From an uncultured bacterium (GTDB lineage: Bacteria; Zixibacteria; MSB-5A5; CAIYYT01), in NCBI GenBank assembly GCA_963726455.1, contig CAVSCK010000004.1, positions 448,001-512,000 of the forward strand: a stretch of 64,000 nt of DNA. The letters run 5' to 3'. This document shows positions 651 to 23,339 of this stretch, piece after piece (the stretch's first letter is position 1; each line of letters opens with the position of its first letter). A program made the translations under genes and the position numbers. Under the pieces are notes generated by a model. The model was not told the origin of the DNA. It did not search any database and worked only from the letters and a program-made list of their open reading frames with translations.

Positions 651-1658
651 TCACTTCTCTGACAAGATTAGGCGGCAGAGATCACGTCGGCTAAATCGTA
701 GAAAGGGAGCCATGGCCAACTTGCCGGTTTGGCCAACGCTTTTCTCGAGAAACTTGAGCTCAATCAATTTGTCCTTGTCTTCCGATCCTCTGGGAACAGC
801 CAGTCCTGCCTCGCGCAACAGCATTGCTCCTTTCGCACGAATGGATAGTTCCAGATTAAGTCTCAGGAAACACAGCATGTCAACGATAACATGTGCTTCA
901 AATCGTCCCCGCAGTCTTTCCAGATAATTGCCGATGCGAGACTCGGACATGTCGCCGCTTGCAATGAGATCGAGTAGCTCCAACTCTTTGTCCAATCCAA
1001 TGCCCAGCCATCTGCGTGTCGCCTTCTCGCTTTCCGAAAAAACTATCACCGTCAACAGTGGTAAGATTGTCAACAGCACAGCAGTTGTTAGAACCGGAGG
1101 CAATATGAACTGATTGAACACAAAGTGAATCACAATTGCTGCCAATATACCCGGAATCAAGTTGGCCCAACCGAAAGACGGATACCTATCCAAGAAGCTC
1201 TTCGACATAAGCGCAAAAATTGCCATCGTGCTCCCGTGCATTGCGGCAGTCCCAAATCCTCTTACGATCCAGACCAATTGGCTGTAGTCGATGTACGCGA
1301 ACAAATAGGAGGCATTTTCGGCAAAGGCAAAGCCCGCGCCGACTGCGAAACCTTGTATGGCACTGTCGACCAGAAAGCCGAGCTTCCGTGCCCGCAGGAG
1401 ATAGACAACCCACACCGCCTTCAGAAGCTCCTCGACAAGAGGACTGACTTGCCTGACAAAATGGGATGGATCAAGCTTCGTGAAGTGGAGCAGGGTGGAG
1501 TTCACCAGATAGGCAAGGATGGCGACGAGACTTCCGACGAGCATGGACGTCAAGATCGCCCGGATTGATACGAGCTTGTAGCTATCCAGAAGAATCAGAA
1601 GAGTCAAGAAGGCAAGGACGGGCGCCAGGCTGAAGACAATGCTTAGGAAAGTGCTCAC
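651..1658 (-). CDS. prsW: PrsW-family intramembrane metalloprotease with C-terminal extension (copy 1)
   Basis: PLVEELLKA, GFAFAEN, MHGS and IHFVFN motifs; multiple TM helices. Confidence 0.88.
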   Translation of the reverse strand: MSTFLSIVFSLAPVLAFLTLLILLDSYKLVSIRAILTSMLVGSLVAILAYLVNSTLLHFTKLDPSHFVRQVSPLVEELLKAVWVVYLLRARKLGFLVDSAIQGFAVGAGFAFAENASYLFAYIDYSQLVWIVRGFGTAAMHGSTMAIFALMSKSFLDRYPSFGWANLIPGILAAIVIHFVFNQFILPPVLTTAVLLTILPLLTVIVFSESEKATRRWLGIGLDKELELLDLIASGDMSESRIGNYLERLRGRFEAHVIVDMLCFLRLNLELSIRAKGAMLLREAGLAVPRGSEDKDKLIELKFLEKSVGQTGKLAMAPFLRFSRRDLCRLILSEK

Positions 1659-1668: not shown

Positions 1669-2445
1669 CTATTTTCCAGTACTCAGTGAGTCCTCGAACA
1701 GACCCTCAGCACTGACCAATCTAATCTTGAGATTCGACTCGGCGCTTTTTGTTTTGTCAAAAGTGAAGATATACTGATTCGTTCCATGATGCAGCAAGCG
1801 AATCTCATTTCGGCTCGCACTGAGTTCCTGATGGTGGGCTGAACTTTGAACGAACCCAGTGAAAACAAGGGCGAGTGAATCATACTGAAGCCGCACTTCA
1901 GCAGCGCCAGGCGCATTTACACTCAACTCTGCGGTCACGACACCCCGGCCGAACCTGGTCACAACCTCCCCCCGAATACCGTGCAATCCGATTTCCTTTC
2001 GCTCTGCAATTTCCAGATTGCCTTCCGGGCCTAGAACCATTGATCCTCTCATCTTGTCGAGCTCAGTTTGCCCCCTCTTGACGAATGTCTCCGGCATAAT
2101 TGCGAAAAGCAGAAATCCTACCAGAATTCCTCCCGCGACGCACAAAGTATACTTTACTGCCGGTCTGGGCTCCGCGACTCCAAATATTCTCCTGAACCAA
2201 CTCACCCTCCATGGGTGAGTCTCATGTATTGAACGGACCTGCAGCATCACGTCGTGCTTTAGATGCGTCGGTGGCTCCACCCCTTCTACTTGCTTCAACA
2301 TCATCGATACCTTAGTCAGCTCGTCCAATAGTCTCTGTGCCTCTGGAGTAACGCTAAGGTAGGACATCAAGTCCGTAAGTTCCTCCGGAGCTATGCTATT
2401 GTCAATCTTCTTATGGATCAAGACCAAGTACTTTTTGTCAATCAT
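1669..2445 (-). CDS. Single-pass anti-sigma factor (copy 1)
   Basis: ATG at 2445 overlaps the sigma stop; N-terminal anti-sigma-like domain (VEPPTHLKHDVM), one TM helix, beta-rich C-terminal domain; paralog of 21148-21936. Confidence 0.8.
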   Translation of the reverse strand: MIDKKYLVLIHKKIDNSIAPEELTDLMSYLSVTPEAQRLLDELTKVSMMLKQVEGVEPPTHLKHDVMLQVRSIHETHPWRVSWFRRIFGVAEPRPAVKYTLCVAGGILVGFLLFAIMPETFVKRGQTELDKMRGSMVLGPEGNLEIAERKEIGLHGIRGEVVTRFGRGVVTAELSVNAPGAAEVRLQYDSLALVFTGFVQSSAHHQELSASRNEIRLLHHGTNQYIFTFDKTKSAESNLKIRLVSAEGLFEDSLSTGK

Positions 2446-2986
2446 GAGTTTGTACGCCTCGCTTGACAAGTATGTCTCTTAACTGTTTCCTGGCCGAGAA
2501 CAGTCTTGACTTGACAGTCCGTTCGGGAATCTTCAGGACGCGGCCGATTTCCTCATAGGAGAGATCCTCAAAATGACGCAGGATAATGACCGACCTGTTG
2601 TCGGTGGTCAATTCCATGAGTGCCAATTGCACCGCGTCAGACAGCCGGCTCAACTCATACGATTTCTCGGGAGATTCGGAGTCTGGAGCTGACACTCCCT
2701 CGAGTGACTCAAAGTGGCGTTGCTGTTGCAGAAAATTGACCGCTTCATTAATGACTATTCGATATATCCAACTGAAAAATTTGAACTCGGGTTTGAATAA
2801 ATGGAGCTTCTGAAAAGCTTTGACAAAAGCAATTTGAGAAATGTCACATGCGTCATCACGACTGCCTATCATCCTGAACGCCACGTTGAAGAGAGGTTTC
2901 TGGTAGCGATCGACCAGTATCTCAAATGCATCCAGGTTGCCATCAATACATTCTTTCACGAGATCGGAATCGTCCCTTTCTATCAT
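2438..2986 (-). CDS. ECF (sigma-70 group 4) sigma factor
   Basis: Region 2 (DACDISQIAFVKAF, FFSWIYRIVIN) and region 4 (LSYEEIGRVLKIPERTVKSRLFSAR). Confidence 0.95.
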   Translation of the reverse strand: MIERDDSDLVKECIDGNLDAFEILVDRYQKPLFNVAFRMIGSRDDACDISQIAFVKAFQKLHLFKPEFKFFSWIYRIVINEAVNFLQQQRHFESLEGVSAPDSESPEKSYELSRLSDAVQLALMELTTDNRSVIILRHFEDLSYEEIGRVLKIPERTVKSRLFSARKQLRDILVKRGVQTHD

Positions 2987-3016
2987 AAGTACAATCTCGG
3001 CCTCACAAAGTTGATC
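2987..3016 (-). promoter_or_regulatory. Putative ECF promoter GATCAAC-N17-GTACTT
   Basis: Same motif and 17-nt spacing at 21082-21111 and 22323-22352; AAC -35 core is typical of ECF promoters. Confidence 0.6.
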
Positions 3017-3138
3017 CTCGAAATCTCAGATAATGTAATGAACCGATCCGCTCGGCACACTCGAATATAAGGTCATCACAGGTGAATAAAGTAATCTTTT
3101 CGCCCCGCGCTGGCAACTGAGCGTTTCAGCGGCATATC

Positions 3139-8512: not shown

Positions 8513-9787
8513 ATGGACGAGCACATAGATGAACATCTCGAACTAAAACGGGCGGTTGCGGAACTCAAAATTCTGAATGAAGTCAGCGTGGCAATCAGCG
8601 GAGCGATAGGGGTTGACGCTGTCACAAACCTGATTGTCAAGAAGTGCGTCGAGCACACCGGCGCCGAGCAGGGGGCTATCTGGCTGTTGGACCGCATGGA
8701 CAAGACAGCGGCTCCCAAAACCTTCCTGAGAGTCATGGATTCCGATCCCACTTCGATCCCCTTTAAGGTCGGCGCAAGTTTGACGGGATGGGTCACCAAG
8801 AATCGCGAACCCCTGATCGTAAATGACGTCGCCAGTGACAGAAGATTCGTGGACCTGGCTGGAGATTATTCCGGTCTTCACTGCCTGTTGGCCGTGCCGC
8901 TCCAGCTCAAAGATACTCTCGTCGGTGTACTTTGCCTATTGAACAAAGCCGGCGGTCAGGGATTCTCAAGTGATGACGCCCGGTTGCTGACTATTGTGGC
9001 GACGCAATCGGCCCAGACCATCGAAAATGCACGACTTTATGACGATGAACGCAGACTTCGATCCCTGGAGGAGGACCTGCGAACAGCGCGTCTGATTCAG
9101 TATTCCCTCCTGCCGCGTGAGAACCCGCAAGCGAACCACTTCGATATTGCCGGACTCTATGAACCGGCACAGATGATCGGCGGAGACTATTTCGATTTTA
9201 TCCCTATCGACAAAGATCACCTCGGAATTGCCATTGCCGACGTGTCTGGAAAAGGCACATCCGCGGCGCTACTGATGGCTAACTTGCAGTCCTGTCTGCG
9301 GGGACAGGCGATTCTTAACCAGAGTCCGAAAGAGACGATTAACAACATCAACTTCATACTGTCTCGATTCCTGATTTCCGGACGATTCATCACACTCATT
9401 TATGGCGTTTTGGATGTTCGTCGGAGCATTTTCACTTATGTCAATGCGGGACACTGCTACCCGTTTCTGACGGCCAAAGGGCGAATAGTGGAGCTGGAAG
9501 CGGGCGGAATCATCCTGGGCTTTTCTTCTGATTCTAAATACTCGGAAACTGAAGTTCCCCTTCAGGCAGGTGAGTCGATATTACTTTACACGGATGGCAT
9601 TACCGAGGCTGCCAACGCTTCAGGGGAGCTTTATGGCGAATCTCGCCTTCTTAACCTGGTGAGAGCAAATCGGACGCTATCCTCCGCTGAACTCGTGCGC
9701 CTGATCAAGGATTCTGTGGTGTGCTTTCAGGAAGAAGAACCGCAGAGCGATGATATCACGCTGGTTGCATTGAGAAATCCTTTGTAA
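8513..9787 (+). CDS. GAF-domain PP2C/SpoIIE phosphatase (RsbU/RsbP-like)
   Basis: N-terminal GAF (LIVNDVASDRRF, LAVPL); GGDYFDF, ADVSGKG, YTDGITEA, DDIT; start chosen at MDEH. Confidence 0.92.
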   Translation: MDEHIDEHLELKRAVAELKILNEVSVAISGAIGVDAVTNLIVKKCVEHTGAEQGAIWLLDRMDKTAAPKTFLRVMDSDPTSIPFKVGASLTGWVTKNREPLIVNDVASDRRFVDLAGDYSGLHCLLAVPLQLKDTLVGVLCLLNKAGGQGFSSDDARLLTIVATQSAQTIENARLYDDERRLRSLEEDLRTARLIQYSLLPRENPQANHFDIAGLYEPAQMIGGDYFDFIPIDKDHLGIAIADVSGKGTSAALLMANLQSCLRGQAILNQSPKETINNINFILSRFLISGRFITLIYGVLDVRRSIFTYVNAGHCYPFLTAKGRIVELEAGGIILGFSSDSKYSETEVPLQAGESILLYTDGITEAANASGELYGESRLLNLVRANRTLSSAELVRLIKDSVVCFQEEEPQSDDITLVALRNPL

Positions 9788-10025
9788 GGGAACCGGTTCC
9801 CGCAATCTTCGGTAAGAACGCCGGCGGACAAACGCGGAAGACGATTGGGTCGCGCTGGCAGCCGGGCTGAGGCAACCTTATCGCATTTTCCGCTTAACAA
9901 CGCAGTTTCCTTCTTGTTTGTCCGGCGTTGTCGATCTATTTTGTAAGCAGGGGATTTCGGCGTGTCCTTCGGAACGCGATCCGCGATGAATGGAAGATAC
10001 CCAGACTGCATTTCGGGAAAACCGC

Positions 10026-12440
10026 ATGTTTAGTATTGGATCTAATGTAGGCAGCTATCGAATCGTTAGACGACTTGGTGAAGGCGGAATGGGAGTCGTC
10101 TATGAGGCCGTCGATGAGCGACTTGATCGAACGGTTGCTCTCAAAGTAATTTCGGAAAAGTACGGTTGCGATCCGAAATACAGGGCAAGACTTTTCCACG
10201 AAGCCAAGAGCGCTGCCAAGATCAATACAGATCACGTTGTTAGGATTTGGGAATGCTCGGAATTCGAGGGCACTCCTTTCATTTCCTATGAGTACGCGCC
10301 GGGCCGCTGCCTGGACGAAGTGATGCAGAAACTCTCCTTCGATGAAAAGGTAAGAATCGCCCGCGAACTGGCAGAAGGTTTGCAGATTGCACATTCGCTT
10401 GGGGTCATCCATCGCGACTTGAAACCGGGAAACATCATTGTCTGCGACGGCGGTTCCATCAAGATTCTTGACTTCGGCCTGGCCAAAATCATTAACGCTG
10501 ATTCCGTTGACAGTCAGGGGAATATCGAGGGGACCCTTTTCTATATGTCTCCGGAGCAGATCTCAGGTGCAACGCAGACATCGTCCACCGATATTTATAG
10601 TTATGGCGTGATTCTATATGAGCTATTTACCGGCCACAAACCATTCGACGGCGAGTACTCCGCCGCCATCATTTACTCCATACTCCATGAGGATCCTGTA
10701 CCTCCCAGTGAACTAAATTCGTCGCTGCCGGAATGGGTCAATCCGCTAGTGCTGAGACTCCTGGCCAGAAATACCGCAGACCGCTTCCCAGACATGGGTT
10801 CGGTACTTGAATATCTTGATGCCACGCAGACAAGTCATGGCGCAGCCACCCGAATCGGTGCATACAAGACCCGCAAGCGAACGATAACGGTCACGCATCT
10901 CAGAAACCTCTCTGGTGATCCGTCGTGGGACTATTTCTGTGCAGGATTTACCGAGGATCTGATTCGTGAGATTTCGCTGCGTACTGACACCGTGGTGTCG
11001 GTTGAACCGGAGAGTTCGGGAGAACGAGAGATCGCGAGCATTTTCCGGAAGTGTCGATCAGATTATGTGCTCACAGGGACCCTGATGCGATGGCAAGAGG
11101 AGATCAAGCTCGGCCTAAGTGTCTATGGTGAGAACGGCGATAAGCTGATTTATGGCGAGCAGTTTCGCGGAGGGGTAAAGCAGTTGTTCGAACTGCTATC
11201 TCGCGCCGCCCGAAATGCCTCTGAGGCACTGGCCAAAGCCAGCGGCGCAGCTTTGGTCGATGTCGATCGCCTCCTGAATACGAATGTCCCTGCCTACGAT
11301 TTCTATCTGAAAGGCAGAAGCTATTACCATACCAGTAAACCAGAGGATTTGGAGTCTGCCATCAACATGTTCAACCGGGCGCTGGAGCTGGACCCGAATC
11401 TTGCGCTCGCGAAGACCGGGCTTTCCGATGTCCATGCGTTTCAGTACAATGCTTATTATGACCGCCGTCCTGAGAAGATCGAACTTGCGATTCAGGAGGC
11501 ACAACAGGCGCTGGCAATCGATTCCCTTCTTCCTGAAGCCCATCGTGCGTTAGGGCGGTGCTACATGTTTGTCGGGGACTTCGATAATGCCGAAAAATCA
11601 CTGATGAGATCTGTAGACATTGCTCCGAAGTTTGCCATGGGCTACCGATCGCTGGCCTGGCTCAAGGACATGGCGGGCGACGACGAGGCTGCCCTCGTCT
11701 GGGCCAAGAAGGCATTGGAATTGGCCCCTACCGATCTTGAGACGCTGTTGCTTCTGGGTCTGCTATATCTGGACATGCGCAAATTCACACTGGCAATGGC
11801 CACGCTTCAGCGCGCCGTGGAATTGGGTCCCGACTACGGCCGGGCCTATTACTATCTGGGCATTGTCTTCACGAAGCTAGGGGTACCGGACATCGCTGTC
11901 GAGAACTTGCAGTTGGCAATTAAGTACAAAGGAGATCCCAACAGCTACATTGACGCCGGATATGCTGATATGGTATTGCGAAACTATGGTCGCGCGAAGA
12001 CATTTTTCTGTGAATCACTCGAACGGGGCTATATGCCTTTTATCGCCCTCTACTTCCTCGGGCTGATCTGTCTAATTCAGGGCGACCAGGAGATGGCGAC
12101 GGGTTATTTTGAAGATTCTTCTCGCTCAGCAGAGGACTATCTCGCTCGCGACCCTACCAACTGTCACGTTGCAAGTTATCGTGCACTCGCGCTTGCCGCG
12201 AGCGGCAGAAAGACCGAAGCAATTGAGATACTGGAGAGGATGTCTAACAATCCCGCCTGCCAGGGGGATCTGCTACACAACGTCGCAAGATGTTACGCTC
12301 TTCTTGGCGATAAGGAGAAGGCCGAGCTATTCAAGACCAAAGCAATCGGGCACCATGCCGGGCCCACACTCAAGGAACTTGAGGGCGATCCTCACTTCCT
12401 GATTCACTTCAACTGCGGCGGCTTTCGTTCGCAGAATTAA
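10026..12440 (+). CDS. Hanks-type Ser/Thr kinase with TolB-N-like domain and TPR repeats
   Basis: LGEGGMGVVY, VALK, HRDLKPGN, DFG, DIYSYG; AYDFYLKGR followed by TPR helices; start could be 9990. Confidence 0.93.
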   Translation: MFSIGSNVGSYRIVRRLGEGGMGVVYEAVDERLDRTVALKVISEKYGCDPKYRARLFHEAKSAAKINTDHVVRIWECSEFEGTPFISYEYAPGRCLDEVMQKLSFDEKVRIARELAEGLQIAHSLGVIHRDLKPGNIIVCDGGSIKILDFGLAKIINADSVDSQGNIEGTLFYMSPEQISGATQTSSTDIYSYGVILYELFTGHKPFDGEYSAAIIYSILHEDPVPPSELNSSLPEWVNPLVLRLLARNTADRFPDMGSVLEYLDATQTSHGAATRIGAYKTRKRTITVTHLRNLSGDPSWDYFCAGFTEDLIREISLRTDTVVSVEPESSGEREIASIFRKCRSDYVLTGTLMRWQEEIKLGLSVYGENGDKLIYGEQFRGGVKQLFELLSRAARNASEALAKASGAALVDVDRLLNTNVPAYDFYLKGRSYYHTSKPEDLESAINMFNRALELDPNLALAKTGLSDVHAFQYNAYYDRRPEKIELAIQEAQQALAIDSLLPEAHRALGRCYMFVGDFDNAEKSLMRSVDIAPKFAMGYRSLAWLKDMAGDDEAALVWAKKALELAPTDLETLLLLGLLYLDMRKFTLAMATLQRAVELGPDYGRAYYYLGIVFTKLGVPDIAVENLQLAIKYKGDPNSYIDAGYADMVLRNYGRAKTFFCESLERGYMPFIALYFLGLICLIQGDQEMATGYFEDSSRSAEDYLARDPTNCHVASYRALALAASGRKTEAIEILERMSNNPACQGDLLHNVARCYALLGDKEKAELFKTKAIGHHAGPTLKELEGDPHFLIHFNCGGFRSQN

Positions 12441-12505: not shown

Positions 12506-15163
12506 TTACTTACATGCTGCACAAGGCGCCGGACCACCGCTAAAGATGTAACTGATAATGTACACGGCATCCGAGATGTCAACGAAGCCGTCGCAGTTAG
12601 CATCGCCCACCACCTGGGGTATAGGCGCCGGACCGCCGGAGAAAATGTATGCAATCAGTGCGACTACGTCCGAGATATCGGTTGCGCCATCGCCGTTCGC
12701 ATCACCGCAGACTTGGGCTATCACATAGACTGCGTAGGGATGCGAATAGGGCGCGGCAACTCCACCCTGGAACGACCGCACGCGCCAATAAAACACCGAA
12801 TCAATGCCCAATGCCGATGTCGGTGTGTAAGTGGCAGTGGTTAAACCCCCGATATCGCAGATCGGCGCCCGAAAATCGAGATAGCGATCCAGTTGAAACT
12901 GAAAACTATCCGCCGCCATCGACTTCTGCGCGAGACCACTCCAGTTGAAGATCGGCCGCGCGGCCGGCAACGCCCGGCCATTGGCCGGATGTACCAAAGA
13001 GACCGGCTCCACATCATAATAGAATACCAGGCTGTCGCCCCGCGGAGGAATTCGATAACAATCCGCCAGATGCGCCGACGTCGTGCCGTCGATGCGGATC
13101 CCGACCTCGAACAGTGTGCCGTTCGAAGTGTCCGATCGCGGTTCGACAATTATGCGGTAGCCGCCATACTGCAAGTTATAATCGAAAGCCCGTTCATCCA
13201 ATGTGTCGTCGCCGTTAGCGTCCAACCGCCCGTAGGCCGAGCCGGCAACCGTCTGCAACGGTCTCGAGATAACAAGATTCAACGGGTTGACGATCCGCAA
13301 TGTTACGTTGCCGTAACCTGTGGTGACCATTTCGTCCGGTAGAATCGGATCGGCCGGCAGACCATTGATCGCCAAAACAATCGGGTTCCCTTGCTGTCCG
13401 CCGATCGCAAAGTCTGGTGCGCCGCTACGATCAAGATCCCCGGCAACCAGAGCGTATAGCGCACTCGTTCCGCTGCCCAAAGGAATGTTGGGCTGTGGAG
13501 TCAGATTCCCCAACCCATCGTTCTTGCAGATGACCAGTGCGCGCGTCTTTGCGTTGACAGCACTAACATCCAGGTCGCCGTCCTTTTCCACGTCGGACAA
13601 AGCCAGATTCAGCAGCGTCCCCGCGAATGCCAGCGTGTCACTGTTTGCGATCCCGCCGCTGCCATCACCCAGACATACCGTGACCACGCTGGTGTCATCG
13701 CCGAGAGTCGAATTGCCGGTGACCGCTACGAAATCACGTTTGCGGTCGCCGTTCAGATCGATGTCCGCTTTGACGGTCGCGAAGTCGAAGGCACGATAGC
13801 CAATTCGCACGGCGGCCGATCGCGTAAGATTGCCCGAACCGTCGTTCAGAAACATCTTGGCCGAGTCTCCGATCGTCGCCACAAAATCATCGTAGCCGTC
13901 ATTGTTGAAATCGGCTGCATCGACAGCGTCAAACGAGAACGTCAGAGTCGCGCTGGTCGGAAAAGCGCCTGTGCCGTTGCCATAGAGAATCTGGTTCTCG
14001 CTGACAATCAGATCCAGATAAGCATCGCGGTTGAAATAACCGGCTGCGATGGCCGGGAAGACCGTGCTGTTTAATGACCGAATCGCAGAGGAGGAATAGC
14101 TGACGGTTTGCGAATCGATAGCAAAATTGCGGGAGCCCTGGTTGAGCAGGATATAAATCTTGTCCGTTGTGTGGGCAACGATATCCAACAAAGAGTCACT
14201 GTCGACATAACCCACCGCCAGGGCCGCCTGTTTCACTTTCAGGTAGTTGCGCGGCGCCTCAAACGTGCCGTCGGACTTGCCATAGATCACGTAGAGGCTG
14301 TCATCGGTACGACCGGTGTAGACGATGTCCGCATAGTTGTCCTGATCCAAATCGGCCTGGCGCACATAGAAAACATCCACAGTGTCGGTGGTCGTGACGA
14401 CATCAAATCCCGGTTCGCACTTGACATATGCCGGGCGGATAGGACCTCCCGGGACAGTTGAGAACATGAAATCACCGGCGGGACCGACGAAGGCAGAGTC
14501 AAGATCGATAAACTGGGTGGGACTTCCGGCCAGAATACGCGCGTAAAGCGTGAAGAGCAACCCGTTATTCTGAGGATTAATTGGTTGCGATGCCATTATG
14601 TCAATCCAGCCAACCAAGACTTTATTGCTCGCCGGTACAAATTTCTTCTGAAGCGATCCCCCGGGAATAATTGAGCCAGTCGAACTCACACTCGTGATCT
14701 CGATGTCATTCGAAGCATAATGAAACCCAAGCGAAAACCCATTCAATCCCACCGTGTTATCAATGTATATTGGAATTGCCACGGAGTCGTTGTTTCCTGA
14801 ATACGGCCTGCAACCCATCCTTACCTTATTGCCGGCGACGGTTCCGTAATTGCAGCCCACGGGGACCGAGCACCCGGAGGGGGCCGGCCCGCCGCCGAAA
14901 ATGTATTTGCACAAGTATGCCGCGTCGGCCACGTTAACTCCGCAATCATTGTTGGCATTGCCCGACTCCAACGGGATTGGAGTCGAACCACCGCCAAAGA
15001 TATAATTGATGAGGTAGACTGCATCAGATATGTCGATGGTTCCGCTGGCATTCGCATCCCCGCAGGTCCAGGGCAGACGAGGATTCTGGCCCTTCAGCTC
15101 TACAGGTCTAGAGATGCAGAAGCCCGCGCAAATTGTCACGATCAGCATTAGTCTCTTAATCAT
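12506..15163 (-). CDS. Secreted dockerin - cohesin-like - FG-GAP - dockerin protein
   Basis: GGAGG SD and signal peptide; N- and C-terminal GDAN...DISDAVY dockerins; cohesin-like segment (VAIPIYIDN...GLLFTLY); FG-GAP module paralogous to 3501-5390. Confidence 0.85.
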   Translation of the reverse strand: MIKRLMLIVTICAGFCISRPVELKGQNPRLPWTCGDANASGTIDISDAVYLINYIFGGGSTPIPLESGNANNDCGVNVADAAYLCKYIFGGGPAPSGCSVPVGCNYGTVAGNKVRMGCRPYSGNNDSVAIPIYIDNTVGLNGFSLGFHYASNDIEITSVSSTGSIIPGGSLQKKFVPASNKVLVGWIDIMASQPINPQNNGLLFTLYARILAGSPTQFIDLDSAFVGPAGDFMFSTVPGGPIRPAYVKCEPGFDVVTTTDTVDVFYVRQADLDQDNYADIVYTGRTDDSLYVIYGKSDGTFEAPRNYLKVKQAALAVGYVDSDSLLDIVAHTTDKIYILLNQGSRNFAIDSQTVSYSSSAIRSLNSTVFPAIAAGYFNRDAYLDLIVSENQILYGNGTGAFPTSATLTFSFDAVDAADFNNDGYDDFVATIGDSAKMFLNDGSGNLTRSAAVRIGYRAFDFATVKADIDLNGDRKRDFVAVTGNSTLGDDTSVVTVCLGDGSGGIANSDTLAFAGTLLNLALSDVEKDGDLDVSAVNAKTRALVICKNDGLGNLTPQPNIPLGSGTSALYALVAGDLDRSGAPDFAIGGQQGNPIVLAINGLPADPILPDEMVTTGYGNVTLRIVNPLNLVISRPLQTVAGSAYGRLDANGDDTLDERAFDYNLQYGGYRIIVEPRSDTSNGTLFEVGIRIDGTTSAHLADCYRIPPRGDSLVFYYDVEPVSLVHPANGRALPAARPIFNWSGLAQKSMAADSFQFQLDRYLDFRAPICDIGGLTTATYTPTSALGIDSVFYWRVRSFQGGVAAPYSHPYAVYVIAQVCGDANGDGATDISDVVALIAYIFSGGPAPIPQVVGDANCDGFVDISDAVYIISYIFSGGPAPCAACK

Positions 15164-15375: not shown

Positions 15376-16431
15376 TCAAGTGTTATTGCGCCTGCGAGAG
15401 TCGTGTTGCGGGGATTCTTCCGCCCATTTGTCAAGCATGAATCGCTGCCAGAGGTCCTTGCTGCTGGAACGGAAGAAGGGCAGAATTGCCAGCCTACCCG
15501 TCTTGCCGATGCTCTTCTCCAGGTACTTCAGTTCCGCAAATTTCTCCACAAGTTGTGGCTCCGGAGAAACAGGCAAGCCGAACTCTCGCATGAGCAGTAT
15601 GCCTTTGACCTGTAAAGACAGCTCGAGTTGGAGTCGCACAAGACAAAGCATGTCCGCAACAACCTCACCTCGGAATCGGCTCTTTAATGATTCGAGGTAG
15701 GCACCGATCTTGGTCTGCGAGATATTGCCGCTACAGATCAGATCCAACAACTCCATGTCAGCATCCAAACCAATTCCCAGCCACTTCTGGGTGGCTTTCT
15801 CGCTCTTTTCGAACACGAAAATCACCAACAGAGGTAAGCAAATCAGCAGAATGACGGTCGATAACAGTGGGGAGATGAGAAAATTGTTATAGACGGCATG
15901 GACAAGGATTGCCAAGCACAGACCTGGAAGGAAAACAACAATTCTGTGGGTTTGGTGGCGATCTGACAGATACTTGGAAATCATCCCCAGTATCGCCGCC
16001 GTGCTTCCGTGCATGACCGCAGTGCCGAAGCCACGAACGACCCAAAGGAGGATGTTAGAATTCGTTAGGGCGTTCAGGTAATAGATGTTTTCGACAAGAG
16101 CAAATCCGGCGCCGACTGCAAAACCATAGATTGCCGCATCGACCAGAAATCCGATTCGCGTCTTTCGCAACAGATAGATGACATAAGCGGCCTTCAGTAG
16201 TTCCTCAGTCAGCGGTGCAATGTACGCTGCGAGATTGGACACGCTGAGAGAGAAAATCCGGGTCAGCCCGGTGTTGAGAAACAGGCCGACTACGGCAACA
16301 AGACAGCCTGCAAATATGGCCCTTGTTGCCGATCGAAGACTAACCAGCTTGTAGCTGTCGAGGAAGATCAGCACAGCCAGAAAAACAAACACGGGAACTA
16401 AACTGACGAATACTTTGATGAGCTCGGTCAT
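15376..16431 (-). CDS. prsW: PrsW-family intramembrane metalloprotease with C-terminal extension (copy 2)
   Basis: APLTEELLKA, GFALVEN, MHGS, VHAVYN; ATGA overlap with the upstream gene. Confidence 0.88.
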   Translation of the reverse strand: MTELIKVFVSLVPVFVFLAVLIFLDSYKLVSLRSATRAIFAGCLVAVVGLFLNTGLTRIFSLSVSNLAAYIAPLTEELLKAAYVIYLLRKTRIGFLVDAAIYGFAVGAGFALVENIYYLNALTNSNILLWVVRGFGTAVMHGSTAAILGMISKYLSDRHQTHRIVVFLPGLCLAILVHAVYNNFLISPLLSTVILLICLPLLVIFVFEKSEKATQKWLGIGLDADMELLDLICSGNISQTKIGAYLESLKSRFRGEVVADMLCLVRLQLELSLQVKGILLMREFGLPVSPEPQLVEKFAELKYLEKSIGKTGRLAILPFFRSSSKDLWQRFMLDKWAEESPQHDSRRRNNT

Positions 16432-19400
16432 AACACTTTGAGCGAAAACATCAGCTCGGTAGATGCCTTTTCTCCCTTTTCAAATGCCGCAGCATAACCC
16501 ACCGACATCGTCATGTTGAGGTGTGACAACATGATCAAGCGAAAATCCAGTTGCGAACCGACGTTCAGTAATGATCTTCTTACTTGTTCACTGTCGAAAT
16601 CAGTGACAATTCCCGTGGAGAACAGAGCCAACCTCAACCAGGTGCCAAACAGCGATGGCGTTCCAAGTCGTCTGAACCTGATGGGTGGGAGCGACCATTC
16701 CGCCATCAGCTTGCCATAGTTGATACCTCCGATAGCGTTTAGCTCGACTCCCGGAAAGCTGTAATAGGCTCGGTATCTCCTTTCCGACTGGTAATCTACC
16801 CAGTTGTTTCCAAAACCTCCAAAGTAGAATCTTGCCAGAGGTTCGATCCGATTACTTGGGGAAAAACCTGCAGAACTTCTGAACCAAATCGAAGAATGGT
16901 TTATGGGAAGCGGTAGTCCCCAGTCAAACTTGGTGAAGAACCGTGGAAATATCTTGCGGTTGACGAACTTCGCGTTGGCGGCAATTTGACACGAAAGACC
17001 TTTCTCAAAGTCGACTGCTCCGAGAGAGGATCTCTGATTGCTGAAAAAGAGAACTGAATTGACGGCGATGAATCGATCGTACGAGGTGGTCACATTCTGG
17101 TACTCTGGCAGCCTCTGCAAATCGCCATATCTCGTGACACCGAAATTGCAGTCCATCTGTTTGGGGCCGTCAGACAGCAGCTTCTTTTGGTATTTGATTC
17201 CGAGAGAATATCCTTTTCGGCTGGTCTTGGTCGGACCGAAGAGATCATAGAAATCAGCGGCGTTGTACGCCAAGTCTGCTTCCCAGTTCGAGTAGCTGTA
17301 CCTCCAACTTGCGTGAACTCTCTCACTGCGGGGCAAAGCTCCTCCGGGGCTGTATGAAACGGAAAGTGCCGAGTTGTGTAAGGCAATCGGGTCGGAAAGG
17401 CTGAGATGTACTCCCACGGCGGCGTAATTCTGATAGCCTTCGACAATCGGATAAGCCGACACGAGTCTGATGTTCTTCAGACCGGAATACCCGCCGGAAT
17501 GCGTGGTAAGCGAGTCGATATTTACTGCGGCTGGGGATCCGGCGAGCCAGCCGGTCACTTCGGGATATTTTTCGACAATTTGCTGGCCCAGGTAGACAAT
17601 GGCGCTTACGTCTTCAATGGGCTTGTTGGCTATCATCACGGGAGAAAAGCCGCCACCCGAAAAGCGAAATACAATTAACGAGTCATCGGAGATCGGGACC
17701 GGCCGGAAGAATCCGGTTTCGCAATTGCTCAGAACCTCCATGGAGTCCGTTTCGATTGAGTATCTGAATATGTTCGAAACGCCGGTATAGTAGGACGATC
17801 CGTAGAGATATTTCCCGTCGGGGGAAAAGACGAAGCCAGCTGGATTGCTGTTCTCAAAATTGTGGAGGACCTCGTAAGTAGTGTCGCCAGCCAGAATCTT
17901 CGCCGTCTCCATTTTGATTAGACGCTGGCTGCCGTCAATCTCGGCAAGCGCGGCGGAAAGAAGAGTACCATCAGGCGAAATATCAATATCATAGATATCT
18001 CGACCATAAGGCCACGAGTAAACCTGATTCCACTCCTGGTAAGGATAGGGGATTTTGACTATCGTTGAGATACCGTTGAAGTGCCTTACACCCCAAATGG
18101 ACTTGTCGGAGGAACTAAACGCCAAGTCGCCGATTCTTGCGTCCTTCAGAAGAATCCTTTTCCTTCCTGAGGCAATCTCAACGACATTGAGGTCCCGCCA
18201 TTCGTCGTTGTCGGTAGTGAAAAAGAGCTTGCCCGACGAGGCGTCGAAGGCCAGCGAAGCTGCGTAGAACAGTGTGGCCCCCTTAATCTCGCAGATCGGC
18301 TTGGAACTGCCGTCTTCGATGCGGATCCCTGCCAGATGGGCAACTTGCCCGGGATAGTTGACCGCAGCATACAATGTTTTCGTTGCAGGATCGAAGTAGG
18401 CCCGCGAAACCGAACCGAGAGGGTTTCGCGATAGCATTCTATATGGAGTTGTGGGATACAGGCGAATCGAATCGAGGTTGGCCGCTTGAAACTGTTGTTC
18501 CCATTGAATCCATTGTGACCAAGCGTCGTCAAGAGATAATCTGTAAGTCTTCCGAAATTGCGAAGCGAAGTAGCTTTTCGTATCCGGACCGCGGGACACC
18601 CACTTTACTAATAGTTGCGGACCATATTGGTAGGCCAGATAACTCATGAATCGCGTACCGTAAAGGTAGGAATTCACGCCCACCTGAAAGTCAATCTTCG
18701 TACCTTCCGATTCCAATCCGATCAAATCGTAAATGTGACTACTGTCACGGACAAGCGTTCGGAAAACCATCTCGTCGTAAGCTCCCAGAGCCCTTCCCAA
18801 ACCCCCCGCCATCCAGGTTTCCATGAATACGGCAATACCTTCGTGATACCATCTGGGAGCGGATCGACGAGGAGTCGTGAGATGACTATAGAAGATCGAG
18901 AGTGGGTTTTCCGAGGTTTCGCTTACCTTGCCTCGAAAGAGTGTCCTGAAGAATCTATCACTTCGGGATGCTTTGTCTCCGGCGATGATGTGAACGATCT
19001 CGTGATTCATGATGGCATTCATTCGCTCATTCGCCGGAGCTGTTTCGTACACGTAACTGATCGGTGCTATCGCAACGGATATGCGATTGTTGGGAGCCGT
19101 GCTGGCGCCGGCATTGCCATAATCACCAAGATCATGCAAGAAGACGGTGATCTTTTGCGACGGCGCGTAATTCCAGAATTTCTTATGGAATGCCAGTGAG
19201 TTCTCGAAACAACGGGCCGCATGGGGAACCAGGTAGGACTCCGCCTGGCCGTAATAGACCAGCCTCAAGTCTTTGGTCTCAAGTGAATACAGTTGCGCGA
19301 AGAGAGAAGGCGCCGTGAAACTAATAGCCAACAGAAAAAAGACTTTCACACGAAGACTGGTCGACAACCAGCGACTTGAATCAGGGTTTGAATACCACAC
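16428..19400 (-). CDS. Exported protein: HExxH zinc-peptidase-like domain + TolB/PD40-like propeller + probable outer-membrane beta-barrel
   Basis: Signal peptide ending SLFA-Q; HEIVH...PRWYHEGIA; DISPDG and FSPDGKYLY; amphipathic C-terminal strands and FYFGG; start uncertain (19400 or 19349). Confidence 0.75.
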   Translation of the reverse strand: MWYSNPDSSRWLSTSLRVKVFFLLAISFTAPSLFAQLYSLETKDLRLVYYGQAESYLVPHAARCFENSLAFHKKFWNYAPSQKITVFLHDLGDYGNAGASTAPNNRISVAIAPISYVYETAPANERMNAIMNHEIVHIIAGDKASRSDRFFRTLFRGKVSETSENPLSIFYSHLTTPRRSAPRWYHEGIAVFMETWMAGGLGRALGAYDEMVFRTLVRDSSHIYDLIGLESEGTKIDFQVGVNSYLYGTRFMSYLAYQYGPQLLVKWVSRGPDTKSYFASQFRKTYRLSLDDAWSQWIQWEQQFQAANLDSIRLYPTTPYRMLSRNPLGSVSRAYFDPATKTLYAAVNYPGQVAHLAGIRIEDGSSKPICEIKGATLFYAASLAFDASSGKLFFTTDNDEWRDLNVVEIASGRKRILLKDARIGDLAFSSSDKSIWGVRHFNGISTIVKIPYPYQEWNQVYSWPYGRDIYDIDISPDGTLLSAALAEIDGSQRLIKMETAKILAGDTTYEVLHNFENSNPAGFVFSPDGKYLYGSSYYTGVSNIFRYSIETDSMEVLSNCETGFFRPVPISDDSLIVFRFSGGGFSPVMIANKPIEDVSAIVYLGQQIVEKYPEVTGWLAGSPAAVNIDSLTTHSGGYSGLKNIRLVSAYPIVEGYQNYAAVGVHLSLSDPIALHNSALSVSYSPGGALPRSERVHASWRYSYSNWEADLAYNAADFYDLFGPTKTSRKGYSLGIKYQKKLLSDGPKQMDCNFGVTRYGDLQRLPEYQNVTTSYDRFIAVNSVLFFSNQRSSLGAVDFEKGLSCQIAANAKFVNRKIFPRFFTKFDWGLPLPINHSSIWFRSSAGFSPSNRIEPLARFYFGGFGNNWVDYQSERRYRAYYSFPGVELNAIGGINYGKLMAEWSLPPIRFRRLGTPSLFGTWLRLALFSTGIVTDFDSEQVRRSLLNVGSQLDFRLIMLSHLNMTMSVGYAAAFEKGEKASTELMFSLKVL

Positions 19401-19512
19401 GTTGAATCTCCAAACGAAGCAAACGATCTTGGCGGGTCAAAGTGCACTTTACCGACTGGCCAGTGAAAGGATGATCTCTAGTCTTTGACAGACGTGTGTA
19501 AAGATAGTCGAA

Positions 19513-19544
19513 GGAGACGCCGCGACCGTAGCCGCAACATCTCC
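19513..19544 (-). terminator. 14-bp stem with UACG tetraloop after the repeat-protein gene (weak terminator or mRNA-stabilising stem)
   Basis: GGAGATGTTGCGGC-TACG-GTCGCGGCGTCTCC on the minus strand; no clean U-tract. Confidence 0.5.
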
Positions 19545-19585
19545 CCCGTAGCATATCATCCCGGTTACTGGCGGGGTCAGTATCC

Positions 19586-21019
19586 CTACTTTTCCGTGAC
19601 CTCGTCAGCCTTGGTTCTGCTGAAATCCATATTTGCGACCGCCGCGCTGAATTCGGGATAGGCGGTAGCCCGGTTAAATTCCTGGACTGCCATTGCCCGG
19701 CTGAGCTCCTGATTTGCCAGGCACTTCGCAAATTGAGGTTGTGCCATCGCTCTGCTGAATTCTTGCGATGCAATCACCTGGGAAAAGGATTGATCTGCGA
19801 CCAAATTGCGAAAATCTCCTGAAGCAAATGCGCGGGAAAACTCCTGATCTGCAATTGCTCTGCGAAATTCGGGCACGGCCATGGCTTTGGCAAAATCCTG
19901 ATTAGCCCACAGCCTACTGAACTCCGGAGTCGCAATCAGACTGACGAACTGCGGATTCGCGGCCAGTCTGCTAAATTCGGGAACGGCAAGCAGTTTCGCG
20001 AAGTCCGGGTTCGCAGCCACTCGGCTCATGTCCGGGTTGGCAAGCAGCTTGGCAAAGTCCGGACTGGACGCCATACGGCTCAGTTCGGCTGTAGCAAGCA
20101 ACTTCGCAAAATCCTGGTTGGCTGCCAACCTGCCGAATTCCGGGTTCGCAAGTAACTTGGCAAAGTCAGGATTGGGAGCAAGCCGGCTCAACTCTGCATT
20201 GTTCGCCAATTTGGCGTAATCAGGAACGGCCGATAGTCTGCTCATATCGGCGCTGGCAACTATTTTCGCAAATTCGGGATCCCGAGCCAGTCTGCTGAAA
20301 TCAGGGTTCGCGAGCAGCTTGGCAAAGTCAGGGGCGAGCGCCATTTTGGCGAATTCCTGACGGGCAACAACCTTGGCGAAATCGGGGTCCGGAGTGAGTC
20401 TGGCAAATTCCGCGTTAGCCAGTAGAGCGGCAAACTCCGGATTGGCTGAGAGTCTCCCGAACTCCGGCGTTATGAGCAGCTTGGCAAAGGAAGGTTCAGC
20501 TGCTAACCTGCTAAATTCGGGATTCGCGGCGAATTTAGCAAAGTCCGGGTTAGCCGAAATGCGACTGAAATCATGATTGGAAAGGATTTTGGCGAAATCC
20601 GGATAGAGAGCAAATCTGCTGAAGTCCGCATTGGCCATGGCTTTTGCAATGTCTGGATTCGCGAAAGCACGACTGAAATCCTGATTTGCCAATGCCGCGC
20701 GAATGTCAGGATTGGCCATCAGCCGGCTGAATTCCGAACTAGCCGCCATAGTGCGAAAGTTCTCATCCTTGAGTAGCGCCAGGACCTTGTCGTTCTGAAG
20801 CAGTGCCTGTAGCTCGCTGTTGCCTAGTACGACATCCTTATCGCTCATCTGGTTAGTACGATACTTCTTTGCGGCGCCGATCGTTCCTTGACTGTCCGTT
20901 TCTGATGGTGGGAAGCCCGTTAGGGCAAAGTATGCGATCACTACTACCACGACTATTATCCCGCTAAAAAGGATCTTAGCCTTGCCGCTACCGAGAAAAG
21001 ACTTTCGTGGTTCTGCCAT
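19586..21019 (-). CDS. Membrane-anchored 9-residue tandem-repeat protein, function unknown
   Basis: GGAGG SD; TM helix at about aa 16-34; 45 consecutive nonamers of the NPDFAKLLA/NPEFSRLAA type. Confidence 0.9.
   Translation of the reverse strand: MAEPRKSFLGSGKAKILFSGIIVVVVVIAYFALTGFPPSETDSQGTIGAAKKYRTNQMSDKDVVLGNSELQALLQNDKVLALLKDENFRTMAASSEFSRLMANPDIRAALANQDFSRAFANPDIAKAMANADFSRFALYPDFAKILSNHDFSRISANPDFAKFAANPEFSRLAAEPSFAKLLITPEFGRLSANPEFAALLANAEFARLTPDPDFAKVVARQEFAKMALAPDFAKLLANPDFSRLARDPEFAKIVASADMSRLSAVPDYAKLANNAELSRLAPNPDFAKLLANPEFGRLAANQDFAKLLATAELSRMASSPDFAKLLANPDMSRVAANPDFAKLLAVPEFSRLAANPQFVSLIATPEFSRLWANQDFAKAMAVPEFRRAIADQEFSRAFASGDFRNLVADQSFSQVIASQEFSRAMAQPQFAKCLANQELSRAMAVQEFNRATAYPEFSAAVANMDFSRTKADEVTEK
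19607..20821 (-). repeat. Coding tandem repeat, 45 x 27 bp with a 54-bp superperiod
   Basis: Manual parsing: 66 aa + 45x9 aa + 6 aa = 477 aa with no indel. Confidence 0.9.
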
Positions 21020-21081
21020 TGCAACCTCCTATGAATGGACGTGAATTACCGGGGTTACCTTGTCCCCAAACTTCTTTTACC

Positions 21082-21111
21082 AAGTACAGTTCAGTTCTCT
21101 AAGAGTTGGTC
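21082..21111 (-). promoter_or_regulatory. Putative ECF promoter GACCAAC-N17-GTACTT upstream of the repeat-protein gene
   Basis: Matches the motif upstream of both sigma copies. Confidence 0.65.
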
Positions 21112-21147
21112 AATCTTTCATTTCCTCCTCGCTCCATTGCCTTTTGA

Positions 21148-21936
21148 TCAGTGAGAGTGCTGTCTCGTATATAGAGTTTCCTCCCAAGAATCATCAGATG
21201 AACGAACGCGAAACTGCATTGCCGAGATATCATTGCTCTTGTCCTTGAAGAGGAGGAAATATTTCTCCTCCCCGTCCTGCGTAAGTCGGACTTGATTCTC
21301 GTTAATCTCCAATGTCTTGGGGACGTGACCTAGTTGTCTCATACCCTCAAGATCGAGATGTCGATTGTCAAAACTGATAGTCACCTCGACACCTCTGTTC
21401 GAAGTCAGATCTATCTCGGCGATGACAGTTCCCGTTGAATATTCTATCCTGACCGTGCCTTCAGCATTTCCGATTGTGAAATCTATCTGATCAGCAACCT
21501 GAACGCTGTCGACGGCGCCGCCCAGATAGATCGAACCAGCCAGACTGCGAATATTCCAAGGAGGGATTACTCCGATGCTGCCGACGAGCAGAGCAAATGA
21601 GAAGATGCCTACGACTATGCCCGCCAACAGGGAATAGGCATACTTGACATTTACCTTGAGGGCTAACGACCCGACGACGGACTCAGGAATGCCGCGATTC
21701 TTTCTCCCCGCGGATCCCTCAGCTCGAACCTGTCGCAAGACGGCGTGTTTCAGCTCCATGGGCGGATCTGCCTTTTGCTCCTGCGCCAACCATCGGAAGA
21801 GTTGGAGGAAACTGTCATATAGCATTTGCGCGTCAGGGTTTCGTCGGAGATACTCCTGCAACTTGAGACGTTGTCTGGGTTTGATCGTCCCATCAAGATA
21901 CTCACTCATAAGTCGAACATGTTTTTCGGAAGTCAT
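21148..21936 (-). CDS. Single-pass anti-sigma factor (copy 2)
   Basis: LMSEYLDG...ADPPMELKHAVL, one TM helix, C-terminal domain collinear with 1669-2445. Confidence 0.8.
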   Translation of the reverse strand: MTSEKHVRLMSEYLDGTIKPRQRLKLQEYLRRNPDAQMLYDSFLQLFRWLAQEQKADPPMELKHAVLRQVRAEGSAGRKNRGIPESVVGSLALKVNVKYAYSLLAGIVVGIFSFALLVGSIGVIPPWNIRSLAGSIYLGGAVDSVQVADQIDFTIGNAEGTVRIEYSTGTVIAEIDLTSNRGVEVTISFDNRHLDLEGMRQLGHVPKTLEINENQVRLTQDGEEKYFLLFKDKSNDISAMQFRVRSSDDSWEETLYTRQHSH

Positions 21937-22322
21937 CGGCCACCGTTCCCCTCTGTTTCACGGCTCGCTCAGCTAGCGTTTGGCGGTGAAGAGCCTTGAC
22001 TCGACGTTCTTCAAGAGAAATCTCAGTAAGTGAACAACCGTTTTGAGCGAGAAACCGTCGAAGTGCCTGACGAAATTCAGGACCTTCAGTTAGGTTGGCA
22101 GACCCCTCGCGCAATCCGGACGCCCTTACTTATTTCGTTGCCGACACGGTCTTCCTCCGGATATTTCGCCGCAGAGGCCCGGCCCTCGGCAAACTCTTGG
22201 CCTCCGATCAATCTCACCGGCGAGTTGACAGACGGTCTCCGTCATCCACCCAACATCTCAATTGACTTCAAATTGCCGTCAAGCCACTCCCTGATCATGA
22301 TGGGATCACCGTTGTCTGTCAT
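21933..22322 (-). pseudogene. Decayed ECF sigma factor, paralog of 2438-2986
   Basis: Fragments REWLDGNLKSIEML, *RRPSVNSPVRLIG, YPEEDRVGNEISKGVRIA and VRHFDGFS...KNVESRLFTAKR* align to the intact sigma; stops, a frameshift and an internal deletion. Confidence 0.85.
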
Positions 22323-22352
22323 AATTACATTTGATCCCCCGAAAAGTTGGTC
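22323..22352 (-). promoter_or_regulatory. Putative ECF promoter GACCAAC-N17-GTAATT
   Basis: Same position relative to the ATG as the motif at 2987-3016. Confidence 0.55.
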
Positions 22353-22648
22353 GTCACATTTCTACGTGAACGCTTTGGTACCAACAGAGTAGCGAGTCTC
22401 AGGCAGGTCGGCTTATACCTTCCTGTCGTCGAACCGCGTAATCGCGCCTATCGCGTCGAATCTCCGCCAGTTCCGTCGAAGTCGATGACCCGAACAAACC
22501 GGGTCGCACAAAGAGCCCTCTTAAGCGAATTTTCGTTTTGCATGCCCCCGAATGCAACTCGTTCCTGATGGAAATTATAATAGGAGATGTGCTCTTGAAA
22601 TGCAAGGCGAATTCTGGCAAGAACCTTTTCTGTATTTGAATTCGAATC

Positions 22649-22933
22649 TTAGTCGATTTGAAAAACCTGAAGCAGGCCGGAAATCTGGAAGACGTTTCTG
22701 ACGTGTTTGTTCATGTTTGTGAGTTTTACAGTCTTTCCCAGCTTCTCCAATCTATTGTGAGTAGCCACCAGTACACTCAGCCCCGCGCTGGAAATGTAAT
22801 CCAGATTCGTCAGGTCTACCGTGAGGGAATCGTCGATAGTCTCAAATATTGGCAGCGCTCTACTAACTTGCGAGGCGTCGAATCTGCCCGAAAGAAAGAT
22901 TTCCTTCTTGTCAGTCACCTTAATGTCCAACAT
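22649..22933 (-). CDS. STAS-domain anti-anti-sigma factor (copy 2)
   Basis: LDYISSAGL, VFQISGL; 94 aa. Confidence 0.92.
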   Translation of the reverse strand: MLDIKVTDKKEIFLSGRFDASQVSRALPIFETIDDSLTVDLTNLDYISSAGLSVLVATHNRLEKLGKTVKLTNMNKHVRNVFQISGLLQVFQID

Positions 22934-23339
22934 CGTTTTGCTCCAGGTGTTTGATCATGGTTATTGTGCTGGTGCGGTTAACATAATCATAATATACGTG
23001 ATCTACTATATTCCTGACCAGGTGCAAGCCCAATCCTCCCGCTTTTCTTTCTTGAACATCCCGGGCGTTATCCACTTCCTGCCACTTGGTTATGTCAAAT
23101 CGGTTGGAATCGGAATCAATCAGACGAATGGTCAAGTCATTTCCGCTCCTGACCAGGTCTATAAGGATGCCTGTCGAACCCATGGGATCATACTTGACGA
23201 GGTTCGTGAAGATCTCCTCGACTGCCAGGTTCACGGTATAAGCGACGTCTTGCAGCAACTCCTGCTGCAAGACGAAGTCCTGGATAAATTCGAAAATCTT
23301 CTCCAACGAATCGATCTGCCTGGGGAACACCTTCTCCAT
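22920..23339 (-). CDS. RsbW/SpoIIAB-like anti-sigma Ser kinase (HATPase_c_2)
   Basis: LAVEEIFTNLVKY, GGLGLHLV; overlaps the STAS gene. Confidence 0.9.
   Translation of the reverse strand: MEKVFPRQIDSLEKIFEFIQDFVLQQELLQDVAYTVNLAVEEIFTNLVKYDPMGSTGILIDLVRSGNDLTIRLIDSDSNRFDITKWQEVDNARDVQERKAGGLGLHLVRNIVDHVYYDYVNRTSTITMIKHLEQNDVGH

Follow-up and report, generated by a model that had tools for sequence, protein, structure and literature searches.

In two-partner secretion, the Omp85 protein TpsB and its partner TpsA are encoded by adjacent genes, and the partner joins a constant N-terminal part to a variable, repeat-rich tail. TamB carries a conserved C-terminal Omp85-binding domain and is of constant length, and in FecIRA cell-surface signalling an ECF sigma factor and a transmembrane (TM) anti-sigma factor are combined with a TonB-dependent outer-membrane barrel. 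The intramembrane protease PrsW cuts the anti-sigma factor RsiW (PMC10202637), and a role for PrsW as a peptidase in export and processing has also been proposed (PMC3482391). WD40-Omp85 proteins form a subfamily that is described but untested (PMC4104836). Here, we analyse a stretch of 64,000 nucleotides from an uncultured bacterium (the window), in which a 477-aa signal-anchored repeat protein, REP (19586..21019, minus strand), belongs to a module with the gene order RsbW-STAS-ECF sigma-anti-sigma-REP-OMP-PrsW. The reading that we tentatively prefer, with a chance that falls a little short of even, is that PrsW would cut both REP and the anti-sigma factor at a shared motif, and that the freed rod would be the cargo of the peptidase-Omp85 protein OMP.

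REP is an array of 45 phased nonamers

An earlier note on this DNA had described REP as a TM-anchored protein with 45 phased 9-residue repeats, and the open reading frame bears this out. It contains one hydrophobic helix, at residues 16-34 (20918..20974, minus strand; Kyte-Doolittle 19-mer maximum 2.77), and the 45 nonamers cover residues 67-471 (19607..20821, minus strand) with zero indels required. The nonamer columns (n = 45) contain N (22), D (5) or S (5) at position 1, P (24), Q (9) or A (5) at position 2, D (20) or E (19) at position 3, F (35) at position 4, R (21) or K (15) at position 6, and A (34) at position 9. The first three to four units are degenerate, and the sole Cys lies inside the unit formed by residues 427-435. 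At lags 9 and 18, autocorrelation was 0.325 and 0.474, respectively, where 2000 shuffles gave no value above 0.163, and K and R units formed 26 adjacent alternating pairs versus 4 pairs of the same type, which was reached by 0 of 10000 permutations. This agrees with the largely alternating FAK and FSR units, with a superperiod of 18 residues, of the earlier note. Codon identity at identical residues of unit pairs was 0.375, which equals the 0.369 expected from the codon usage of the gene, so that synonymous sites are saturated, while the residue match between units is still 36%. It follows from this saturation that the repeat phase is maintained at the protein level, as had been suspected from the divergence of the DNA copies. 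Tandem Repeats Finder marked only a 200-nt patch of the gene.

AlphaFold2 (AF2) modelled REP with a mean pLDDT of 64 without an alignment, and of 75.7 (pTM 0.56) with an alignment of 39 sequences, in which case pLDDT was 77-87 across residues 71-430. Residues 38-58 were of low confidence (pLDDT <50) in both monomer models. In both, nearly every unit forms a 7-residue helix followed by a 2-residue linker, in agreement with the two-turn helices envisaged before, and the tail is predicted to be a short-helix solenoid or rod in which each nonamer is one two-turn helix. Foldseek found no match to the models above a query TM of 0.29. The best VIA-align scores, Z 6.7 and 6.3, were both to designed repeat proteins, as were the best rows in general (Z 5-6.7, rmsd 4-12), and these scores are within background for helical repeats. 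Neither STI1 nor GerD was among the matches listed by these two whole-chain searches, which single domains can escape, and no natural fold was matched to REP. Since the nearest structural matches, weak as they are, are de novo designs, the tail, as modelled a natural 9-residue short-helix solenoid, is of interest for the evolution and design of repeat proteins.

The likeness to STI1/DP helices that the earlier note had seen stands at the level of the motif and not as a domain. The Pfam family STI1-HOP_DP (PF17830) matches REP with 65.7 bits versus a cut-off of 29.1, a score summed over partial repeat matches, of which the best single stretch covers positions 5-28 of 55 (24/55) and not the full domain. 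The family was above cut-off in 5 of the 15 homologues scanned as well, and a profile match to the STI1 structure 2llw had an E value of 0.004. These matches would fit a STI1/DP-like holdase, or a periplasmic protein released by signal peptidase, with Phe/Leu grooves that bind hydrophobic clients of the Omp85 protein and with PrsW serving the anti-sigma factor only. However, the hits are partial, and homologues with periods of 11, 12 and 13 residues keep the head of the protein and the operon without having such repeats, so that we regard this as the least probable of the explanations considered here, and as improbable in itself. The suggested likeness to GerD was not upheld at family level: the GerD HMM (PF17898) had no REP match at E<=1, and REP has no lipoprotein Cys anchor, a Cys near the TM end being present in 3 of 79 homologues. 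A single homologue matched the GerD HMM at E 0.0026, with 18.2 bits, below the cut-off of 29.5. NCBIfam matches to YdhT and TPR_END were below cut-off, and the ESM Atlas returned only unnamed clusters with a minority of STI1/UBQLN1 labels (recognition was low at 1300). The sole PDB sequence match, coagulation factor V (E 8e-29), was rejected as reflecting a common 9-residue period, since only the repeats align; the factor V B-domain carries such repeats. A profile match to 9e5c_0q was set aside on the same ground.

A constant head and a variable tail

A word-based homologue search gave three relatives with full REP, two shorter ones and 20 with the head profile, and because these were few, genome searches were required. 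When the first 120 residues of REP were compared with 201 genomes of the window's phylum, 22 had a match, and of these, 20 besides that of the window were real. One candidate carrier, G009 (E 3e-4), was dropped, as its locus L051 contains neither REP nor its neighbour and the profile missed this genome. In species genomes, 94 relatives were confirmed by a pattern scan, and 80 loci were retained. By genome titles the 80 loci, all metagenome-assembled, span about nine phyla, the titles including Zixibacteria, Bacteroidota/Ignavibacteria, Acidobacteriota, Eisenbacteria, Latescibacterota, Krumholzibacteria, Gemmatimonadetes, Binatia and Hyphomicrobiales. The phylum set and the 80-locus set overlap and contain near-identical genomes, so their loci are not independent. 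The family is unnamed, and in many phyla it sits beside genes for a peptidase-channel protein and a membrane protease.

What is constant across the 80 loci is the TM helix and the head, residues 45-66 of REP (20822..20887, minus strand; G45-T-I-G-A-A-K-K-Y...Q57...D62-V63), with the motif G[TA]IGAAxxY. In the 20 relatives that were collected without a pattern, G45, I47, G48 and Q57 never vary. The earlier note had seen in this region a short stalk after the TM helix; a stretch of this kind is there, but it is actually where the family is most conserved, and it is a candidate protease site and a candidate partner-binding motif. Averaged over residues 45-66, conservation is 0.68, compared with 0.28 over residues 201-400 and 0.08 at the C-terminus, where it is lowered in part by alignment gaps. 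Judged from these alignments, conservation in the family is lowest in the repeats. Among 63 complete proteins, which exclude loci that are truncated or contain N as well as four that are prone to frameshifts, the tail ranges five-fold in length, from 153 to 772 aa. The repeat periods of the 80 relatives range from 6 to 27: period 9 occurs in 36, period 13 in 6, periods 11, 12 and 6 in 5 each, period 27 in 3 and period 18 in 2, the remainder being three single cases, 10 weak ones and 5 that are too short. The perfect nonamers of the window's REP are therefore a single example of a passenger that has been expanded anew on repeated occasions.

Some tails contain Pro/Gly-rich units inserted within the helical array. 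In five Eisenbacteria/Binatia homologues (L085, L086, L094, L082 and L072), near-perfect Pro/Gly-rich repeats of 11-13 residues, apparently recent expansions, lie between nonamer-type helical ends. A clade with 12-residue repeats (L099, L114, L118-L120, L125, L129, L131; P0008-P0026) retains head and operon, and many of its database proteins have precomputed MgtE_N (PF03448) matches, which likely reflect the repeats.

The variability of the tail bears on the possibility that REP is an uncut structural rod, such as a TamB-like strut, a ruler or a GerD-like trimeric rope, which links the inner membrane to the Omp85 protein or clusters the complex. A signal anchor followed by a solenoid that is predicted to be elongated, with an Omp85 gene alongside, is what such a rod would look like, its repeat phase is strictly maintained, and the one weak GerD match among the homologues points the same way, since GerD clusters receptors as a trimeric superhelical rope (PMC11841064). 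However, the five-fold variation in length, the poor conservation of the distal end and the Pro/Gly-rich 11-13-mers within the helical array of some tails all argue against it, and it leaves the head motif and PrsW unexplained. A fixed-length ruler or periplasm-spanning strut is accordingly disfavoured, although the earlier note had named a ruler and a span of the periplasm among the possible roles, and we hold an uncut rod of any kind to be quite unlikely.

REP, OMP and PrsW form a conserved core

The gene that follows REP encodes OMP (16428..19400, minus strand), a protein of 990 aa with a zinc-peptidase domain, a PD40 beta-propeller and an Omp85-like C-terminal barrel, assigned by motif and weak Pfam matches. 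The peptidase motif HExxH...E (H133, E134, H137 and E187 in ORF numbering) is invariant in 49/49 OMP sequences. Of these 49 members, 22 had weak Pfam matches to PD40, 15 to Omp85_2 (best E 2.4e-4) and 5 to Peptidase_MA_2; POTRA was absent from the 11 Pfam families that matched them. Neighbours in the ESM Atlas were likewise PD40/Omp85, and the barrel is weakly assigned as Omp85-like. Next comes the PrsW-family intramembrane protease (copy 1; 15376..16431, minus strand), which scores 85 versus a cut-off of 23.5 bits in Pfam and 39.9 versus 225 bits for the NCBIfam equivalog, and whose motifs EExxK, FxxxEN and HxxxN are invariant in 49/49 sequences. Upstream lie a STAS anti-anti-sigma factor (22649..22933, minus strand) and an RsbW-like HATPase_c_2 kinase/anti-sigma factor (22920..23339, minus strand), both found by domain search.

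Among loci with enough flank, OMP follows REP in 63/64, PrsW is found downstream in 52/54, an ECF sigma gene precedes REP in 66/70, and RsbW plus STAS do so on the same strand in 50/65; genes beyond PrsW are not conserved among REP loci. In the 201 phylum genomes the counts were 21 for REP, 23 for OMP, 24 for PrsW and 21 for the cognate ECF, and each of the two OMP-only genomes has a REP-like tail at a contig edge before OMP. A stem-loop of 18 pairs between REP and OMP (19509..19548, minus strand) is terminator-like with a weak T tail, and the number of terminator-like sites overall was not above that in shuffles (11 vs 9.8); the sigma-70 promoter and terminator scans were near chance. In two loci (L050, L102) the module is rearranged, with REP-OMP ahead of RsbW-STAS-ECF, and in L035 (G169, 84% complete) OMP is truncated at 716 aa and no PrsW was found in the genome. 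A literature search that covered the ECF group surveys in part found no description of this gene module.

REP-OMP-PrsW is retained in three loci (L087, L115 and L126) without ECF or anti-sigma, where STAS abuts REP and ends 238-288 nt before the REP motif. Of five genomes with ECF-less loci, assemblies of unstated completeness, three had no match to the cognate ECF at E<=1e-25, the fourth had one with only 38% identity and the fifth a partial match of 43%. PrsW is therefore retained where an anti-sigma substrate is absent.

Two cassettes and one promoter motif

The window contains two related cassettes. The one at 15376-23339 has REP and OMP, together with an anti-sigma factor (copy 1; 21148..21936, minus strand) that consists of a cytoplasmic anti-sigma domain, one TM helix and a periplasmic domain, and its ECF gene has decayed to a pseudogene (21967..22322, minus strand) with stops, a frameshift and a deletion, in which remnants of the N-terminus and of region 4 are left. 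The other, at 651-3017, lacks REP and OMP. It encodes an intact cognate ECF (2438..2986, minus strand), an anti-sigma factor (copy 2; 1669..2469, minus strand) with a G-S-M motif after its TM helix, and PrsW copy 2 (651..1658, minus strand). The two anti-sigma factors are 25% identical and the two PrsW copies 50%. From this gene content, the module in the window is split by duplication, and since PrsW stands with ECF and anti-sigma in the second cassette, where REP and OMP are absent, it can accompany an anti-sigma factor alone. The best NCBIfam scores of the ECF, which is paired with a single-TM anti-sigma factor, include SigW, below cut-off.

The pair of cassettes is flanked by two large dockerin/FG-GAP surface proteins of 1603 and 885 aa (3501-8312 and 12506-15163, minus strand), which have closely similar C-terminal halves; in L034 and L036, the module likewise has related genes as neighbours. 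Two SpoIIE/PP2C-like phosphatase ORFs, recognised by eye, and a Ser/Thr kinase-TPR protein (3-650, 8330-9787 and 9990-12440), situated around the cassettes and between them, may feed the RsbW/STAS switch. Further away are a tandem repeat at 59746-60494 (240 bp, 3.1 copies, 84% matches) and a region of about 10 kb with strongly negative AT skew (44000-54000, down to -0.215), perhaps a long minus-strand gene cluster.

An ECF-type promoter motif, CCAAC-N16-TGTA, lies upstream of REP (21079..21112, minus strand; PWM 24.3, the site being in the training set). The pattern CAAC-N16-NGT[AC] was present in 39 of 81 REP leaders, compared with a mean of 1.15 and a maximum of 5 in shuffles, 0 on the reverse strand and 0-4 with other spacers. 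A matrix trained on REP-leader sites only was then applied to ECF leaders, which had been outside the training; it gave a score of >=12, the threshold, in 63/66 of them, and in 0 when the reverse strand was scanned. The strict motif was found at 36/55 loci with separate genes, 0/15 fusions and 0/6 loci without an adjacent ECF. There are three strong sites in the window, the other two lying before the ECF pseudogene (22320..22353, minus strand; PWM 26.8) and before the intact ECF (2984..3017, minus strand; PWM 23.7), and the whole genome has only 8 sites scoring >=16. These predicted sites suggest that the ECF is autoregulated and has a small regulon, and the intact ECF likely drives the REP promoter in trans. 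The five further sites score 18.8-23.0 (G000 C4 439042(-), 412091(-), 1161105(+) and 1295233(+), and C5 58609(-)); the first precedes another SBBP-repeat surface protein (L134) by about 0.8 kb, and that at 412091(-) coincides, on the other strand, with a ftsK/lolA-like gene junction (L135).

REP and the anti-sigma factor share a juxtamembrane motif

In 53 of 54 full-length anti-sigma factors, G-[TSA]-[IMLV] occurs 5-20 residues after the TM helix, versus 2-10 of 54 in six control windows, and its Gly is the best-conserved residue of the periplasmic part. In copy 1 this is a G-S-I motif (G134; 21529..21537, minus strand), of the same type as the G-T-I of REP, and in the REP family G-[TA]-I lies 10-12 residues past the TM end in 65/79. 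Thus, two single-TM proteins of one PrsW operon share a motif, which by analogy with RsiW may be the PrsW site. The earlier note had listed protease substrate among the possible roles of REP; the neighbouring PrsW gene and the shared motif support this, and cleavage itself is putative. A three-residue motif could instead be a packing or turn motif. Signal peptidase I follows a -3/-1 rule, and the REP residues T/V/A/S-x-G agree with this pattern, as expected of an ordinary secreted protein. However, the usual c-region of a signal peptide is shorter than the 10-12 residues found here, and in the anti-sigma factors the equivalent -3 position is often taken by L, F or M.

At 15 loci the anti-sigma factor lacks its own TM and periplasmic part, and in 12 of these the reading frame continues from its cytoplasmic domain into REP; the assemblies of the three exceptions all contain other frameshifts. 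A further three fusions were recognised by eye, and the databases hold two fusion proteins. On a quick tree of OMP the fusions need two origins, and a test on 25 of the 49 rows rejected a single fusion clade (p-AU 6e-25); the anti-sigma domain has been fused to REP at least twice. RBS-like sequence persists before the old REP start codon, so that the free form is probably still made. A statistical check of this retention was discounted as circular, because the starts had been picked by RBS score. The fusion protein P0007 has a precomputed Pfam PF27957 match.

These fusions are one ground for seeing REP as an envelope-resident co-anti-sigma factor, sensor or decoy, whose head competes for PrsW in a feedback on the ECF while nothing is exported; as in cell-surface signalling, a signal from outside would be passed on or degraded by the OMP peptidase. 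The repeated origin of the fusions and the ECF promoter and anti-sigma-type motif of REP fit such a role, and ECF21 anti-sigma factors are likewise fused to, or lie beside, a beta-barrel (PMC7826278). However, the REP-OMP-PrsW core survives without ECF and anti-sigma, a sensor should retain its sensing surface, yet the tail is swapped for unrelated repeats, and the fusions seem to have kept the free form. We consider this role unlikely.

Possible mechanism

In the preferred reading, in which PrsW cuts REP and OMP takes up the freed rod, the ECF would transcribe itself and REP-OMP-PrsW, and PrsW would make the site-1 cut at the shared motif in both the anti-sigma factor and REP. The first cut would lead, via an M50 protease, to release of the ECF from the anti-sigma stub, and the second would free the REP ectodomain from the inner membrane. 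The exposed head would then dock on the peptidase-propeller part of OMP, where it may be trimmed or held, and the barrel would export or display the tail, a passenger free to drift in sequence and length. An M50 protease is encoded in the genome of the window. One promoter motif precedes both the ECF gene and REP, and the catalytic motifs of both proteases are intact (49/49 each). The reading is favoured by the signal-plus-passenger logic of a constant N-terminal head and a variable tail, by the tight pairing of REP with OMP and by the survival of REP-OMP-PrsW at loci that lack ECF and anti-sigma. It is weakened by the second cassette, where PrsW is kept without REP, by the weak assignment of the barrel and by the shortness of the motif, which in REP also suits signal peptidase I. 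A literature search found no precedent for export of a folded helical rod by an Omp85 protein.

It is also possible, though we rate it on the doubtful side, that the module represents an undescribed export pathway, in which PrsW would serve in trans as a dedicated sorting protease that reads a juxtamembrane G-[TSA]-hydrophobic signal, and the zinc-peptidase/propeller/Omp85 protein would recognise the released head and display an alpha-solenoid. The same PrsW cut on the anti-sigma factor would couple export to ECF activation, and the repeat unit of the passenger would have been re-invented many times.

REP would provide a candidate substrate and a candidate function for an uncharacterised class of Omp85 proteins of peptidase-propeller-barrel architecture. 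G-[TSA]-hydrophobic is proposed as a PrsW recognition motif common to two substrates; none was found in the literature examined. The promoter and the small predicted regulon define an ECF group in mostly uncultured diderm phyla.

Comparison with known systems

As in TpsA, REP combines a constant N-terminal part with a variable repeat tail, and the adjacent gene encodes a putative Omp85-superfamily barrel. Unlike TpsA, it is TM-anchored and has neither a TPS domain nor a beta-helical passenger, according to Pfam, NCBIfam and the all-alpha model, and unlike TpsB, OMP has no POTRA match and carries an HExxH peptidase, and a dedicated intramembrane protease is co-encoded. REP differs from TamB in its poorly conserved C-terminus and in its tails of very different length. 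It shares with STI1/HOP DP and GerD short N-capped amphipathic [DN]-P-x-F helices; it differs from the former in having continuous units rather than a compact domain, to which its matches are partial, and from the latter in the lack of a lipoprotein Cys. As in FecIRA and ECF21, an ECF, a TM anti-sigma factor and an outer-membrane barrel are found in one locus, but the barrel of the module is Omp85-like with a peptidase and not TonB-dependent. ECF21 also has anti-sigma fusions, and its promoter is given as GCAACC/CGTCT (PMC7826278), compared with CCAAC-N16-[TG]GTA for the module.

OMP has the propeller-Omp85 architecture of the WD40-Omp85 proteins, and its peptidase is of the HExxH type, unlike the 'Metallo' class (PF00149) described in the same source (PMC4104836). 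In the PrsW-dependent export proposed for polymorphic toxins (PMC3482391), PrsW would likewise process or release a passenger at the membrane; there it is described as fused to the passenger, mainly in Gram-positive bacteria, whereas in the module it would act in trans, on a passenger without a toxin domain, and an Omp85 protein is added. The closest likeness is to SigW-RsiW-PrsW-RasP of Bacillus subtilis (PMC10202637), with which the module shares an ECF sigma factor, a single-TM anti-sigma factor, a PrsW with intact motifs, an M50 protease in the genome and, at motif level, a predicted autoregulatory ECF-type promoter. Unlike that system, the hosts of the module are diderm, PrsW is inside the operon, REP is a second single-TM candidate substrate, a peptidase-Omp85 protein is added and the core outlives the loss of the ECF pair. 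On the gene content described here, the REP module would work like a SigW-RsiW-PrsW unit joined to a two-partner-like export pair.
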